DNA of 63,063 nt, filler included, from Basidiobolus ranarum (taxonomy: Eukaryota): the NCBI GenBank assembly GCA_040143965.1. It is 17 parts of 17 records of this genome, joined end to end, with 100 filler letters (N's around TTAATTAATTAA, not from the genome) between each part and the next. Parts side by side here need not be neighbours in the genome. Positions count along the whole stretch, not along the records: positions 3,726 to 7,349 come from JASJQH010002373.1; 16 more parts are not named here. One strand, given 5' to 3'. A program made the translations under genes and the position numbers. Under the pieces are notes generated by a model, which was not told the origin of the DNA, made no database searches, and saw nothing but the letters and a program-made list of their open reading frames with translations. Below, piece by piece: positions 1,397-8,354 of this stretch (positions within the stretch are counted from its first letter, which is position 1; each line of letters opens with the position of its first letter).

Positions 1397-3625
1397 TGTT
1401 GAAGTCAATTGTCTTTATCATATTTGTTATCTCTATCTTTATATACCTAACTACTTCATATATCACCTATCAGTTAGTTAACATTACTTAGTCAAACATC
1501 ACTTAGCTGAAAATTGGAACATATCTTATATATATATGGGAATAATGAGAGAATTAGCAATTCCATATTGGAAATTTAAAACTGGTCCAAATTGCCCCAA
1601 AGATAGCTCATTTTACTCCCCCAGATGTTTTCAATGCAACCACAGTGTAAGTTTTCTGTATTTCCATCAGAATGTATAAATGCTTCATATCTGGACAACA
1701 AATAATTATCTCATGAAGCTATTTGCAACTTCACTTTTCTAAAGTTCCTCCAAACAGCTCCTATTTTTCCAATAGGTTATGAGCCCCATGTTCTAACCTT
1801 TACATCATGACAGATATCACTACTGCCACTTTTATTAACTCTAGTGTTGAAAACTTGATGGAGAAAATTACAATTTCTGTGAGTTCAAGATGCAAATCAT
1901 GCTGGATGACAGGGAGGTTTGGGAGGTAGCCTCTGGAGATAAAAAGTAACCTTCTGACCCTACTTTATTGGAGCTTACAAGAAAAGAGACAAGAGGGCCT
2001 TTGATATCATTTGTCAAAGTTTGAAGGATTCACAACTTGTGAATATTCAATATGAAAAGACTTCCCATCAAGCTTGGACTATATTGGAAGAGTGTTATGA
2101 AGCAAAGAGTCTGGCTAATAGACTCTTTCTCAGACAAAAATTCTTCAAAATAAAGATGGAAAAGTCCGAAAGCATGATTACTCATATTGCAAATGTACAA
2201 TCTTTAGCAAAACAACTGGAAAATATTAGTGCAACTTTACTGGGAGAAGATATCATTATGCCTCTTCTAAGTAGTATACCAGAACAGTATTCAAACTTGG
2301 TTGCAGCTTTGGAAGCAAGATCTGACAAGTAGTTGTTGGAGTTTGTGGTGGCAAGGCTAATGGATCAACACCTCAGAATCAATAATTTGGAAAAAGAATC
2401 TGAGGAAGTGGCTCTTTTTGGAGCTGGAAAATGGAGCTTTGGCAAGAACAAAGGTTACCAAAGAAGGAAACCAGATTTATGCAATGATTGTAACAAACCA
2501 GGACACCAGTTAAAAGATTGCAAATCATGAAATTACAATGAAAATGAGAAGTCGGAACAAGCAAATCAGGTTTCAACCAAAGAGGAAGTTGTAGTTGTTT
2601 CTGCCCTATCAGTGACCTCTGGACAAGCCTGTAGGTTGAGGTATATTGATTCTGGAGCCTCTCAACATTTCTCTAATCAAAAAAACTGGTTTAAGACACT
2701 CAAAATTGACATCAACAAAAAGGTTTATATGGGTGATGACTGGCCACTAGGAGCTCTGGGATTGGGGGAAATTGAAGCGGATCTTGGGGGCATCTCTGGG
2801 GACATGTATTTGAGACTGAAAAATGTGCTCTATGTGTCGGCAATAGCAAAAAATTTGTTATCAGTGAGTAAAGCTACATCTGAGGGATATACCTTTAATT
2901 TTAATCAAGATGGCTGTACAATCTGGGATTGAAAAGGGAGTTACATAGCTTCTGGTACTAAGCAAAATACCTTGTATAAGCTTGATTATATTAGGCCAAT
3001 ATATGCGCAAGTTAATACAGCCACAGCTGAAGAGATAAACAGGTAAATCTGGCATCGGGGATTGGGTTATCTGGGAGCAAAAAATATGAGAAATGTAATT
3101 AAAAACAAGATTGTTTTGGGATATATTTTGGAATTCCACCACATTTGGAGCTATTAGAAGATTGCCTATATGGTAGGCAATGCAGTCAGTCATTTGTGGG
3201 CTCTGGAATGGGCAAAATTGGACATACATTGGGCCTGATACACTCAGATCTGTGTGGCCCAATGAAGACAAAATCCTTAGATGAAAAAAGGTACTTTATG
3301 ACCTTTATTGATGATAAGAAAAAGTATACATGAGTGAACTTTCTAGCCAGTAGGGATGAAGCCTTTAATACCCTCAAGAAATTCAAAGCAATGGTGAAGA
3401 CTGAAACAGGTCTAAAGATTAAGATTATCCATACTGATAATAGAGAGCAAATACCTCAAAACCTTTCTCTAACTTCTGCTCAACACATGTGATAAAACAG
3501 CAGTCTACAGTGCCATTTTCCTCACACGAGAATGGAGTAGCAGAATGTGATAACAGATCAATAATTTAAAATCAAGATCATTGCTTGATGATCTAGATTT
3601 AACAAAACCGTTCTGGGCGTAATTG
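1397..3625 (+). mobile_element. Decayed Ty1/copia LTR retrotransposon, 5' half (LTR, PBS, gag, protease, integrase)
   Basis: LTR 1397-1774 (TGTTGAAG…TTCCAATA), PBS GGTTATGAGCCC at 1775, gag SLANRLFLRQKFFKIKM, zinc knuckle CNDCNKPGHQLKDC, protease IDSGASQH, integrase LIHSDLCGPM; several stops and frameshifts. Confidence 0.95.
1775..1787 (+). promoter_or_regulatory. Primer-binding site of the half-tRNAiMet (Ty5/copia, hemivirus) type
   Basis: GGTTATGAGCCCC directly after the LTR end. It is complementary to the tRNAiMet anticodon arm rather than the 3' CCA end. A second copy lies at 49374-49386 (-). Confidence 0.85.
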
Positions 3626-3725
3626 NNNNNNNNNNNNNNNNNNNNNNNNNNNNNNNNNNNNNNNNNNNNTTAATTAATTAANNNNNNNNNNNNNNNNNNN
3701 NNNNNNNNNNNNNNNNNNNNNNNNN
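3626..3725. other. Artificial contig linker N44-TTAATTAATTAA-N44 (first of 16)
   Basis: Identical 100-bp linker starts at 3626, 7350, 11073, 14795, 18516, 22236, 25953, 29670, 33386, 37101, 40814, 44527, 48238, 51947, 55655 and 59360. Intervening segments never increase in length (3625 to 3604 bp). The 12-mer puts stops in all six frames. Confidence 0.99.
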
Positions 3726-3797
3726 CTGAATAAATTGTCTTCCCAGTAATGAACATAGCATCAGGTTTTGGACTAGATTGGGTGTTCATCATAACAA

Positions 3798-5967
3798 TCA
3801 CTTGTCAAGCTTTTGGAGCGCATTTGAACAAGGGCCGAGGTCTATCCAAACATCTTCACCATTATTGCCAGGGATATTATTTTGACTCCACCACTTGGCC
3901 TGCCAAAGGTGTTCATTATAGACTACCTTCTGAGGACCAGTATAGACGGTAGAAGAATTCCAAGCGGATATACCAGTACATGTTGTATATGAAGGTACAT
4001 TAGGGGTGACTGATGTAGTTGTTGGGGGTGAAGTGGGTAGTGATGAAGCGATGGGGTTGATACTGGAAACTGACGATGATTCAGTGGGAGTGCTTGGTGT
4101 CGAGGAGAGAATGGCTGTACTTGGGATAGTTGTAGCAATGTCACCTGAACATCCACTGATGGCATTCCAATAACCTGAACCAGCAGCTGGTGCTTGCCCT
4201 TGTACCCACCATAAAGATTTCCAGATATATCCCTCATATGCAACAGTGGAGCCACCAGGGTATGATCCAGATGCATCCCAAGCTGGTACAGAGTTACAAG
4301 AGGGAAGTTTCGGTTCGACATTACAGCCACCGTTATTCTTTAGAAACTTGATGTCGGCAAATAAAAATATAATTAAAATCAAAGGTTTTCATAAAATTCC
4401 TTGCAATTTTGTTACCTGCTTGGTTCCTTGTCCGTAGTTCATACCTCCAACTTGATTATTCCACGCTTGAGAAACATCCCAAAACATTATACCACCAAAA
4501 CTACTGAAGTTTCCTCGTGTTTCTTCAGCAATGATTTGCAATTGTGAAAGTGGAACGTAACTACCAAATGCCAATAAGATTAGATAACTGCTTGAAATTA
4601 TGGTTAATGTACACATACCCTGAACCAGCAGCACTGGGTGCAGCAGGAGCACCAATAAAAACTTTGACTTGTGGATTTGGAGAGATGTGAGTGGCCCAAT
4701 AGTCCCAAACACCGTAATTCCAAGCTTGATAGTTATCATAGTATTGCAAGCCGCCTAGTAAAGAAACAGTTTAGCCAGTCAGTTAGCATAGTAGCTAATC
4801 ACCAAATATGCACATACAAGGGTTGTTGTAGAACTGGACAAAGACGAGGTCAAACCATGCATTGTTCAACGTGCTGCTGAGTTGGCCATCTAAGGAACAT
4901 AACATTCAATCATTAATTATTGTTGGTGTATCTATAGAGCTAGTTAATATGTATATCCTACCGGGATAAACACATTGGGGTGCACCAGTAATCAAGTACT
5001 TCTTACTTTTATCTTGAGCATAGTAAGAGCGAAGTTGATTGATAAATGCAACGTATCCGGTGGGACCACCTCCCTCAATATCTAGATCGACACCATCTAG
5101 GACGGTATCACCGAATGGCCTTGTATCTGATTTACCACCAAGGAATAAATTCCTAAAAATATTTTACGTTATTTACCAAGATTATACAACAGACCAAGAA
5201 GTCCAAACAAACCATATTTGCGTAGCAAATTCCTGGGCTTGAGTATCATTCTGGAATCCGTAAGAACCGCCGGCACCGCCAAGTGACAGAATAATGGATT
5301 TTCCTCGAGACTGACAGAATTTGATATCATTACTCACAATAGGACAGTTGAGTAAACCGGTGCTAGGAAAGGTGGCATTATCTTTCAGATTGCATGTCTA
5401 TCAATGAGATTTGTGAGACTACAAGCATATCCATAAAATATTTGAATACGAGTAACTGACATTGGCTAAATTTAGAGCCGGGAGTCCACCTTGTCCAAAG
5501 AATGTGTTCAAAAAGGCTGCAAATTCAGAAGTTAGTGTGGGGCGTAGCTGAAAATACACTCAATGGTTGTTACCCAGTGGGATCACATCCAAAGTATCAT
5601 CTTGACAATAGTATGCGAGATCTCGTTGCCAGCCAGTGGAATTACCCCCGCCACCTCCGTAGCTATTCTGACCCCTGTGAAAAAGTTAGACTCCCCAAAA
5701 TTCAAAAGCGACGGAGCTACAAATTACCAATCTAGAAAGACAGCGAGTTTAGAAAGAGAAAAGTAAAGAATTGCTTGATATCAATAAATACTAACATGCT
5801 ACGAGATTGTCATTGCAGTTAGGCTATGTTGGGCATGGTCAGACAGGTTAGTATTCATCCTTACTTATTCAGATCCTTCACTCTTTACTTACATCGAAGG
5901 CTGTAGAGAATGTGACGTTTATGGAGGTTACCACGAATGCCAATAGTATTTTGATAGCGAACATCAT
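3798..5967 (-). CDS. Secreted GH18 class III (CTS1-like) chitinase with two C-terminal CBM5/12 (ChtBD3) modules and a Ser/Thr/Pro linker; about 11 exons
   Basis: Spliced translation gives signal peptide [14 protein letters not shown]…, YWGQNS, SLGGA, catalytic [27 protein letters not shown], then two AW…Y…V.Y….W…WW modules. Confidence 0.95.
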
Positions 5968-6419
5968 ATTGCGAACACGCAGGATAAATTACGTACTGAG
6001 AGACTACTTTCCAAACTGAACCGTTAGCAAGCAGGTTTAAGTACTTTTCAGAATATGTTCTGTGGTTTATTAAAATCGAAAAATAAGCACTTTGGCCGGT
6101 CGACCTTGGATGATAATTACTTTCATCTAAAATTTGTATGCACCTTGACCTTGAATTTAATAACACTTGTCATGCTATTGAGTCGAATTTAATTATACTT
6201 CATCGAATTTCGATCGACGGCGACTATTTTGGAAGGAATCTTAATTCATCTGATCATCTAAAGTAAATCTGTTGGTGAGCTTCTATTTGACAATCTATTG
6301 TCACTTGGTGGCATATTGAATGAAAATGGCTCAGTTAATAATACATGGAGACCAGACATGCTATTTTGCGCACCAACCTGAGTAGTTGGCGAAAATGTGC
6401 TATTTTTACTTCGGATTAA

Positions 6420-6708
6420 GGTAAATTAATTATTTCATCATGCAGGCAAAAATTAATAGGAAAATTAAAGTTATATTTAGACCTAATCAATCTGCAAAGA
6501 CGTTCTGGTCTTTCCTCATTTGAGCGCAAGTTAAAAAGAATATGTCTAAAGTTCAGAGTAGCAGCCAGGTCACGATTCCAAAGACGAAAGGTAGAATCTT
6601 CAGTAGTTACCTCAGTAGTATTGGTCACGACTATTAAACACGGTTGGTTTTTGCACCCGAGCAGAAATTAGGTTTGAATTTTTTACTTGCATATAAAAAG
6701 CGTTTACC
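6420..6708 (-). mobile_element. Non-autonomous TIR mini-element carrying the 3' end of a Fanzor/TnpB-like nuclease
   Basis: Ends GGTAAA…TTTACC are flanked by TTAA on both sides (6416-6419, 6709-6712), with further imperfect inverted repeats inside. Frame 6667-6416 reads LLGCKNQPCL…RLWNRDLAATLNFRHILFNLR…ERPERLCR (half zinc finger plus RuvC-III-like NRD motif). Confidence 0.75.
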
Positions 6709-7449
6709 TTAAAAGGCCACAATAGGATACTTTTCTCTTTTGTATAGTCTAGGATTTTGGATTATTATTTGTAATTGTTCGAATTACCTTAGTAGCGTCA
6801 ACTTGAATTGTAATATTGGATCGAATCAGCTTGGGTGTGAGGTAACGCTTGTTGGATTGAATGAGTTTTCACCACCATGCTGCTCAGCATATATTGATGC
6901 AGTGTACTCTCCCTCAACTTCAGGTCCCTGATACCTGCTAGCCTGGAAGATGTTCATATTGTTATGTCTAAGAGTATTAGGAGTGAGTACTTATCTCAGT
7001 TTTGGGACACTAGCTACTAGTTCTACTCTTGGTTGAATCTCTGGTTCACAAGGATATCTTTGTTGAGTACAAGGTATACCCCCTTGATTTCGACTTAATT
7101 TGCTGAGTATCTTAGCTATCGTGTTGCAACATGTCTTTCCAAGTCTAGATCTTGCAAAGAGTGCCACACCAAGTGCACACCGATTTTAGGATATCCCCAG
7201 GCTTCCAAGATGCTAATAAATCGATTTTCTTCTATGTCAAGTACTACTGCTATGCGTTGACTCTCTATATCTTGACAGATGGCCATACAATGTTCAAGCA
7301 TGGCTAGGCCCATTTTCAAAGATTTGGATATATTAAAGCTTGCTCTTCGNNNNNNNNNNNNNNNNNNNNNNNNNNNNNNNNNNNNNNNNNNNNTTAATTA
7401 ATTAANNNNNNNNNNNNNNNNNNNNNNNNNNNNNNNNNNNNNNNNNNNN

Positions 7450-7778
7450 CAGCGATCTCTGATACGAACAACAACAGATCCCTTAGGCCCTTGTACCTTG
7501 ACACACTTTCCACACATTGACGCCTGATCAGTGTCTTGGCCAGAACCTTGGCCGAATTGGAAGCGACTAAGAGCTGCAATCATATCGCTCTCGCTGGAGC
7601 TATCCCCTTGCTTCGAGCAAGCATCCTGATCAGGAGTGAAGAAGGTACCATCCCCACTGTAGTCGCGCTTGCTCATGAGAGCTTTGTCATGGACACCAGC
7701 ATAACCTGCGAACTGAGCACCAAGCACAGCTTGGACCGAGAAAAGGCAAAGAGAAAGAGTGGTGATTGATTTGAACAT
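7450..7778 (-). CDS. Secreted RlpA-like double-psi beta-barrel (expansin/loosenin-like) protein, 3' truncated
   Basis: Signal peptide, KR site, SGDGTFF…AC, MIAALS, MCGKCVKVQGPKGSVVVRIRDR. Confidence 0.9.
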
Positions 7779-7818
7779 GGTATGCGGTGTGATGTGGTGA
7801 TTGTAGTAGATGCAAATA

Positions 7819-8354
7819 TCCTGTTTGCTGTACTTTAATCCTCAGTTCCGTAGCTTGACTTTATAGTCATTTGCACCGCTCTGGCCCCAGTCCTCCGAGT
7901 ATCTTAGGCTCCACATTCCGTTTTCGTCACAAATATTGATTCTTACTATATATATCCAGCTTCACTTCGTTCCTTCTTTCTTTGGCCATAAGTATATACA
8001 ATATAGATGCCACTACCATATATAGTCTACTCATAACATCGCTGAAAAATGGCTCTAACATCTCTTCATTGGTATTCATCCAAATATGGTAGCAGGCGAA
8101 ATCTCTTGCTGTGAACCGTCGCTCAGTTAGCATTCCCATCATCAATATCTTTATTTCGCTTGCACAAACTTCTTTGTACTCAACCCCAACGAATTTAGAA
8201 TGGATAGCAAGCTCTCGAATCACTGAATACTCATCAATACTCCGATTATCTAGTTATGTTATGAATCATGGACGTCACCACAATCACTAGCACTAGAACC
8301 ACCGCCAATCGAACCATTTGTAATAGCCGATTCTATTTGGACATGGAAAATCTT
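7819..8354. repeat. Upstream region of the DPBB gene, duplicated in inverted orientation at 10558-11072
   Basis: For example CATTCCGTTTTCGTCACAAATATTGATTCTTACTATATA is the reverse complement of sequence near 10935-10973; colinear similarity runs over about 500 bp. Confidence 0.9.

Follow-up and report, generated by a model that had tools for sequence, protein, structure and literature searches.

A probable remnant of a PpFz1-type Fanzor1 gene at the site of a supposed mini-transposon in Basidiobolus ranarum

We analyzed a short intergenic region within a 63,063-nt stretch of DNA from the fungus Basidiobolus ranarum (assembly GCA_040143965.1). The whole stretch is called the window here and has a G+C content of 37%. 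An earlier note had read positions 6420–6708 as a 289-bp mini-transposon, a deletion derivative of an element carrying a gene for a Fanzor nuclease. We conclude instead, with a probability of roughly 0.88, that the minus strand from 6416 to about 6765 is a dead, 5'-truncated pseudogene fragment (~350 bp) of an intron-containing Fanzor1 gene of the PpFz1 type, a type known from mucoralean fungi, PpFz1 being the Fanzor1 of Parasitella parasitica. Homology to intact Fanzor1 genes runs colinearly across one of the supposed transposon ends, and the homologous DNA contains an intron and carries lesions. Since homology to an intact Fanzor crosses 6703–6712, the 289 bp are, on sequence comparison, not a discrete unit.

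A once complete element would have decayed in place, its ends either lost or no longer recognizable. What is left would be about 18 codons of the penultimate exon, an intron of ~51 nt that should be unspliceable, and the last exon, with half a zinc finger, the RuvC-III motif and a C-terminal tail. About 90–110 of ~648 residues are retained. Because the WED, REC, RuvC-I and RuvC-II parts are missing, the fragment cannot encode a nuclease; the first zinc-finger pair is missing as well. The fragment presumably does nothing now.

A Fanzor1 remnant that continues past the supposed terminus

The strings on which the mini-transposon was based are present, at the spacing of 289 bp that had been reported. 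A string check found TTAA at 6416–6419, GGTAAA at 6420–6425, TTTACC at 6703–6708 and TTAA at 6709–6712. Together these form a 10-nt pair with 100% complementarity, TTAAGGTAAA (6416–6425) and TTTACCTTAA (6703–6712), that encloses 289 bp. Between the arms of this palindrome, a minus-strand frame is open from stop to stop over 83 codons (6416–6667), and it encodes the peptide that the earlier note had quoted.

A comparison of this peptide with Fanzor proteins, which the earlier note had proposed as a check, confirms the Fanzor origin of the coding content that the note had recognized. Using phmmer against the PDB, residues 2–58 of the 83-aa peptide aligned with residues 1204–1253 of the 1259-residue PpFz1 chain fused to maltose-binding protein (9cf0_P), with an E value of 9.8e-6. 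This similarity to the C-terminus of a characterized Fanzor1 is significant, and the matched region consists of the zinc finger's second half together with the WNRD motif of RuvC-III. The end of the Spizellomyces Fanzor1 (SpuFz1, 8gkh_P) was a weaker match in the same search (E 1.4). Some WD40 proteins scored better in the PDB search, and we rejected these because a single 14-residue "KLWNR" stretch is matched over and over in them, with no match passing by itself. Searching Pfam with the peptide returned no family at E≤10.

To place the peptide among sequenced proteins, we used a scan of 1.84 billion representative proteins. This yielded 48 proteins at E≤1e-3, of which three were at E≤1e-10, and the best match (P0001) is 66% identical to the peptide. 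Long members of this family, such as P0018 (742 aa) and P0014 (636 aa), end in CHGLLxCxNxxC followed by WNRDLAAVLNFRHIL and RPERFRR. From the 48 family matches we selected 29 for shortness and aligned them with the window peptide (alignment A1). The near-invariant residues W30, N31, R32, D33, A36, L38, N39, F40, I43, and P54 are all kept in the window peptide. The only close match with a named source is a 74-aa hypothetical protein of Rhizopus microsporus that is 75% identical over 36 residues. A search directed at longer homologous proteins gave four candidates, and none of them scored. Most of the 48 matches are short predicted proteins (52–225 aa) that cover only the end from WNRD to RPERF, so relics of the Fanzor1 C-terminus, or last exons that were called wrongly, seem to be common in public fungal assemblies. 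One of the matches, P0008 (1338 aa), aligns eight times with residues 29–63 of the peptide by way of its repeated FIANRDLFAQSDFYFFHDSLRS unit and looks like a translated tandem repeat rather than a Fanzor.

The full catalytic set of Fanzors, as given in the available text of PMC3627910, is D ... [TS][TS]xx-C4 zinc finger ... RD, and from this set the window has only the second cysteine pair (CKNQPC) and the RD of WNRD.

To compare the region with complete genes, we conducted a metagenome scan with the family alignment, which recovered 13 loci. One of these, L002, contains an intact gene composed of a 561-codon frame (2356–4041), a 59-nt intron (4038–4096), and a 91-codon frame with its stop at 4359–4361. 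Its first exon matches PpFz1 (PDB 9cf0) with an E value of 5.6e-136 and SpuFz1 with an E value of 2.6e-41, and searching Pfam with this exon gave just a sub-threshold match to Cas12f1-like_TNB (14.1 bits compared to a cut-off of 26.3). A second locus, L001, is nearly identical to L002. The intron of L002 has the form GTAAGT...CAG and, if retained, would place an in-frame TAA at the donor. Excising the 59 nt gives YPVVDRHGLLRCKNQQC, which is the arrangement conserved in the family and includes HGLLRCKNQQC. A third locus, L004, is more distant (52% of amino acids shared with the window peptide across residues 5–48). Its 64-nt GT...AG intron (396–459) includes a CTGAC box as well as a T-tract and splits the same arginine codon as the intron of L002. 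Loci L003 and L006–L010 read through this codon without an intron. In the window, L001/L002 and L004, the arginine codon of HGLL-R-C is split by this intron, which looks like a lineage-specific gain within the family.

Aligning the window with these loci shows that the supposed terminus at 6703–6712 lies inside the gene. With blastn, window positions 6759–6487 aligned with L002 3976–4266 at 75% DNA identity over 294 columns (E 1.4e-53) with no break across 6703–6712, and the same positions aligned likewise with L001 (E 5.8e-52). At the protein level, tblastn gave a second match that lies beyond the proposed unit and is colinear with the first; here, window positions 6762–6718 encode IQNPRLYKREKYPIV, which aligns with VQNPRPYQREKYPIA of P0005. 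Identities upstream of 6708 were 73% to residues 202–216 of P0005, 67% to P0001, and 73% to residues 540–554 of the L002 protein. A profile built from 14 family members, with E values computed with Z=1, gave the same picture. The main match in the last exon covers profile positions 221–283 with 74.9 bits, and ahead of it there is a colinear match to positions 207–225 (E 2.4e-4) upstream of the supposed end.

Identity to L002 differs by segment. It is 46/54 (85%) in the exon end at 6709–6762, 43/51 in the intron (for which the segment comparison gave about 86%), 85/103 in the RuvC-III region at 6487–6589, and 21/66 at 6419–6486; the DNA alignment of the exon end has 10 gap columns. On the coding strand, TTTACC|TTAA reads TTAAG|GTAAAC, which is an exon end followed by a splice donor, and the intron occupies the same codon in the window, L001/L002 and L004. 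We therefore do not accept that 6703–6712 is the boundary of a terminal inverted repeat (TIR) and a target-site duplication. It is an exon|intron junction, and exon homology runs past it at 46 of 54 positions. The deletion-derivative model is not supported either, the supposedly retained left end (6668–6708) being the intron itself.

On the basis of these alignments the minus strand can be divided into three parts. The end of the penultimate exon remains at 6708–6762; it encodes IQNPRLYKREKYPIV, has a 10-bp deletion and an in-frame TAA, and keeps the conserved TTAAG end. A decayed spliceosomal intron of 51 nt follows at 6657–6707, as placed by a MAFFT alignment with L001/L002. The last exon (6416–6656) contains the second zinc-finger pair, CKNQPC, the RuvC-III sequence RLWNRDLAATLNFRHIL and RPERLCR, and ends with the stop TAA at 6416–6418. 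The two palindrome arms, formerly taken as duplication plus inverted repeat, have ordinary positions in this gene. Read on the coding strand, the left arm (6416–6425) holds the last codons and the stop of the open frame and the right arm (6703–6712) holds the exon end TTAAG and the first five intron bases. The palindrome would then have arisen by chance from an exon|intron junction and the end of an open frame.

Lesions were found in both the intron and the upstream exon. Compared to L001/L002, the donor is GTAAAC rather than GTAAGT and the acceptor is CGG rather than CAG, and the intron has lost 8 nt relative to L002. Just upstream of the exon end, 10 bp are deleted relative to L001/L002, and the upstream frame hits a TAA. 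In the last exon, no insertion or deletion separates the window from L002 as far as 6487. Synonymous third positions are identical to L002 at 29 of 36 sites. We considered whether the intron is unusually conserved, as a hint of a functional RNA, but rejected this because its identity of 43/51 compares with 29/36 at synonymous third positions. These two values also indicate that the lineages of the window and L002 are close, so abrupt losses of similarity between them reflect breakpoints or module differences rather than drift.

Such losses occur on both sides of the fragment. Upstream of about 6763 there was no similarity to L002; the best local score was 23, which 112 of 200 shuffles matched, and 354 of 500 shuffles did as well as an anchored extension. 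When the whole L002 protein was used in a tblastn search of the 63-kb window, only two colinear pieces were recovered, residues 540–554 and 559–616 of 648. A remnant reaching to ~7024–7110 was suggested by a weak RTSS*CP match at 7024–7004 (–2.1 bits) and a likeness seen by eye, and we rejected it because both the shuffles and tblastn were negative. On the other side, the tail of the last exon (6419–6486) has no robust homologue. Weak protein similarity of the frame tail to other family members extends to ~6467–6455, reaching residue 67 with P0041 and window position 6455 with P0006.

Palindrome, folding and rival explanations

The earlier model proposed a 289-bp TIR deletion derivative at 6420–6708 with a TTAA or TA duplication that kept the omega-RNA scaffold and could supply a guide in trans. 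We regard this as very improbable. It is consistent with the perfect 10-nt complementary pair at the ends and with the Fanzor-derived content between them, and the 20 extra stand-alone guide RNA copies described for a Chlamydomonas Fanzor, in the available text of PMC10530073, are a precedent for such copies. TIRs should be more alike than chance would produce, and the ends of an element should coincide with the ends of homology to the parent, with unrelated flanks. The first of these expectations is contradicted by the shuffles. The internal inverted pairs that had been quoted are present, but their similarity is at chance level: the best local score between 6420–6500 and the reverse complement of 6628–6708 was 18; of 1000 dinucleotide shuffles, 287 scored as high, and so did 44 of 588 equally spaced control pairs taken from other parts of the window. 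Perfect 10-mers with an inverted copy 200–410 bp away start at 19 positions in the 63-kb window. L001/L002 read TTAAGGTAAG at the equivalent of 6703–6712, with G at the tenth palindrome base; the tenth matching base thus exists because the splice donor mutated in the window. The second expectation is contradicted by the Fanzor exon homology beyond 6708 and by the fact that the supposed end is a splice donor common to L001/L002 and L004. No second copy of the 289-bp unit was found within the 63-kb window.

The scaffold part of this model was not supported either. The string that had been offered as a guide is indeed the reverse complement of 6400–6419. Published Fanzor guide RNAs, as described in the portions of PMC10530073 available to us, derive from 3' noncoding sequence by the right end of the element. 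The proposed unit has no such region because the stop of the frame (6416–6418) lies in the supposed duplication, and no homology to the 3' region of the L002 gene was found. The RNA fold of the scaffold region, 6400–6520, is no better than that of shuffled sequences (z –0.16; 73 of 200 shuffles did as well), and searching Rfam with 6000–7300 gave only three sub-threshold snoRNA matches (E 2.2–8.9) that are far below the gathering scores.

Three results weigh against a dead pseudogene fragment. The whole 313-nt RNA, with its ends pairing, folds somewhat better than shuffles (z –2.02, with 3 of 100 as good), which is also a point for the earlier model; in the intact L002, the corresponding stretch does not pair end to end in this way (z 0.22). 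The frame of the last exon remains open across 83 codons, which is unexpected in a very old relic. Lastly, the final 68 bp of the frame (6419–6486) and the DNA beyond are unlike L002 (21/66), so the 3' limit given for the fragment is tentative and a diverged right end may lie downstream.

Another explanation is that the decayed remnant still includes the real right end of the parent element, perhaps with a former guide RNA gene, somewhere downstream of the stop codon (~6200–6419); this end would either have diverged too far to match L002 or belong to a different subfamily. The tail of the frame is unlike L002 and weakly like the tails of P0041 and P0006, so subfamilies with different 3' modules seem to exist. 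Given the synonymous identity, the loss of similarity at 6487 is abrupt and looks like a module switch or breakpoint and not like gradual drift. However, window positions 6300–6486 compared with L002 4267–4815, which covers its 3' tail, noncoding region, and inverted repeat, gave a score of 22 that was reached by 157 of 500 shuffles, and none of the 13 metagenome loci matches 6300–6486. A search for an enclosing inverted repeat in 5950–7340 gave just two weak pairs, neither of which sensibly flanks the fragment; in one pair an arm falls within the frame of a neighboring gene, and in the other an arm falls within the last exon of the fragment. No inverted-repeat partner for a right end was seen in this interval. 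We consider this explanation unlikely, and the nuclease gene would be destroyed even if it were true. A different idea is that RNA transcribed from the still-open last exon and the adjoining 3' flank could fold, with its ends pairing (z ~–2), and load onto a Fanzor1 encoded elsewhere in the genome, acting as an orphan guide against the sequence beside 6419, upstream of the chitinase gene. We give this idea hardly any credence.

A further alternative is that the open last exon was co-opted, either to encode a small protein or to form a piece of the transcript of a neighboring gene. An open frame of 83 codons in DNA with 37% G+C is consistent with this, as is the shared orientation of the frame with both neighboring genes. 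Against it, the frame lacks any ATG and follows directly on a stop, the acceptor site upstream of it has been destroyed, and half a zinc finger with one catalytic helix is not known as an independent fold. Co-option is extremely improbable, and a dead fragment of a PpFz1-type gene remains the explanation that we favor.

Surroundings of the fragment and of its intact relatives

The fragment lies in the spacer between a gene for an expansin-like secreted protein and a GH18 chitinase gene, both of which are on the minus strand like the fragment. The chitinase was identified by a GH18 match (E 1.9e-6). Its first recognizable coding sequence is near 5685 and a possible ATG, which is a candidate start, is near 5797. 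The earlier note had the chitinase gene co-oriented with the fragment and ~450 bp away; the orientation is correct, but the first clear coding sequence is ~620–730 bp from 6419. On the other side there are minus-strand frames at 7398–7841 and 7116–7397. The expansin-like frame starts with MFKSITTLSLCLFSVQAVLG and has a weak match to EXPB1-like domain 1 (EXPB1_D1; E 0.0017) that is below the cut-off. The 7398–7841 frame is probably a secreted protein of the expansin or double-psi-barrel type. This expansin-like frame is broken by runs of N at 7350–7393 and 7406–7449, and such runs are regularly spaced in the window, the one at 7350–7393 lying nearest to the fragment.

The apparently intact gene of L002 (2356–4361) sits between inverted repeats of 135 nt at 1721–1855 and 4446–4580 that are 89% complementary. 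It is ~220 bp from the stop (4359–4361) to the outer end of the repeat at 4580. We looked for a target-site duplication at the outer ends of this repeat and none was evident. L001 and L002 part ways at about position 4577 of L002. Positions 767–1211 of L001 show inverted homology to the left flank of L002 (1412–1855) that extends for at least 445 bp, to the end of the contig, and this inverted stretch has a weak zf-RVT match on the minus strand of L002 (1487–1729; E 0.0065). One reading is that the repeats around the L001/L002 Fanzor gene extend much further and include part of a retroelement; the other is that the gene is enclosed by two retroelement pieces in inverted orientation. Positions 1–906 of L002 are an open frame with a weak match to Phage_integrase, a tyrosine-recombinase family (E 6.4e-4, below the curated cut-off). 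This frame is ~800 bp to the left of the repeat that flanks the Fanzor gene and could be a Crypton- or DIRS-like neighbor.

The fragment in itself is of little importance, as decayed Fanzor1 fragments are expected in mucoralean genomes and the family was catalogued in 2013. It does show that a PpFz1-type Fanzor lineage with an intron inside the zinc-finger region was once present in this genome. There are also two practical lessons. Where a splice donor such as AAG|GTAAGT lies close to the AT-rich end of a gene, the result can look like a transposon terminus that carries a TTAA duplication, and the WNRD...LNFRHIL motif can reveal Fanzor relics where Pfam finds nothing.

Comparison with known systems

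Miniature inverted-repeat transposable elements (MITEs) carry TA duplications (Tc1/mariner-type) or TTAA duplications (piggyBac-type). The sequence in the window resembles a MITE in its 289-bp size, its AT-rich composition, and its short perfect terminal palindrome beside TTAA. It differs in that its boundaries match no break in homology to the parent gene, its inverted similarity is at chance level and a second copy was not seen in the window.

As far as the available text of Bao and Jurka (2013; PMC3627910) goes, Fanzor1-carrying transposons from Rhizopus, Phycomyces and Mucor (ROr-4 as well as PBl-3 and MCi-4) are placed in the MuDR superfamily, with MuDR-like inverted ends and 9-bp duplications. 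The protein family of these elements is the same as that of the window fragment, and the inverted repeat flanking the intact L002 gene is a feature in common with them. When the fragment is compared with the description of these elements, no inverted ends like theirs are detectable in it, and 9-bp duplications do not fit the proposed TTAA or TA.

The 3' noncoding region that encodes Fanzor guide RNAs (fRNAs) adjoins the right end of the transposon, and these RNAs reach farther downstream of the open reading frame than do the omega-RNAs of TnpB, according to the portions of Jiang et al. (PMC10530073) available to us. The same text describes the stand-alone fRNA copies of Chlamydomonas reinhardtii, which are a precedent for guide modules away from the nuclease gene, as conserved, multi-copy, derived from the 3' untranslated region, and supported by small RNAs. 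The window fragment is unlike these copies in that it is present once in the window, consists of coding exon and intron sequence, and is not adjacent to a right end, and no conserved structure was seen in it.

The closest characterized relative is PpFz1 (PDB 9cf0–9cf3; PMC11423790), which uses an omega-RNA of 75 nt and a target-adjacent motif of 5'-ATN in the available text of Xu et al. (2024). Unlike PpFz1, the window fragment is disrupted by a stop as well as by a 10-bp deletion, and its intron is dead. Even so, the window peptide aligns with the last ~50 residues of PpFz1, is 66% identical to the corresponding part of the PpFz1-type gene in L002, and keeps the second pair of the zinc finger as well as the WNRD motif of RuvC-III.

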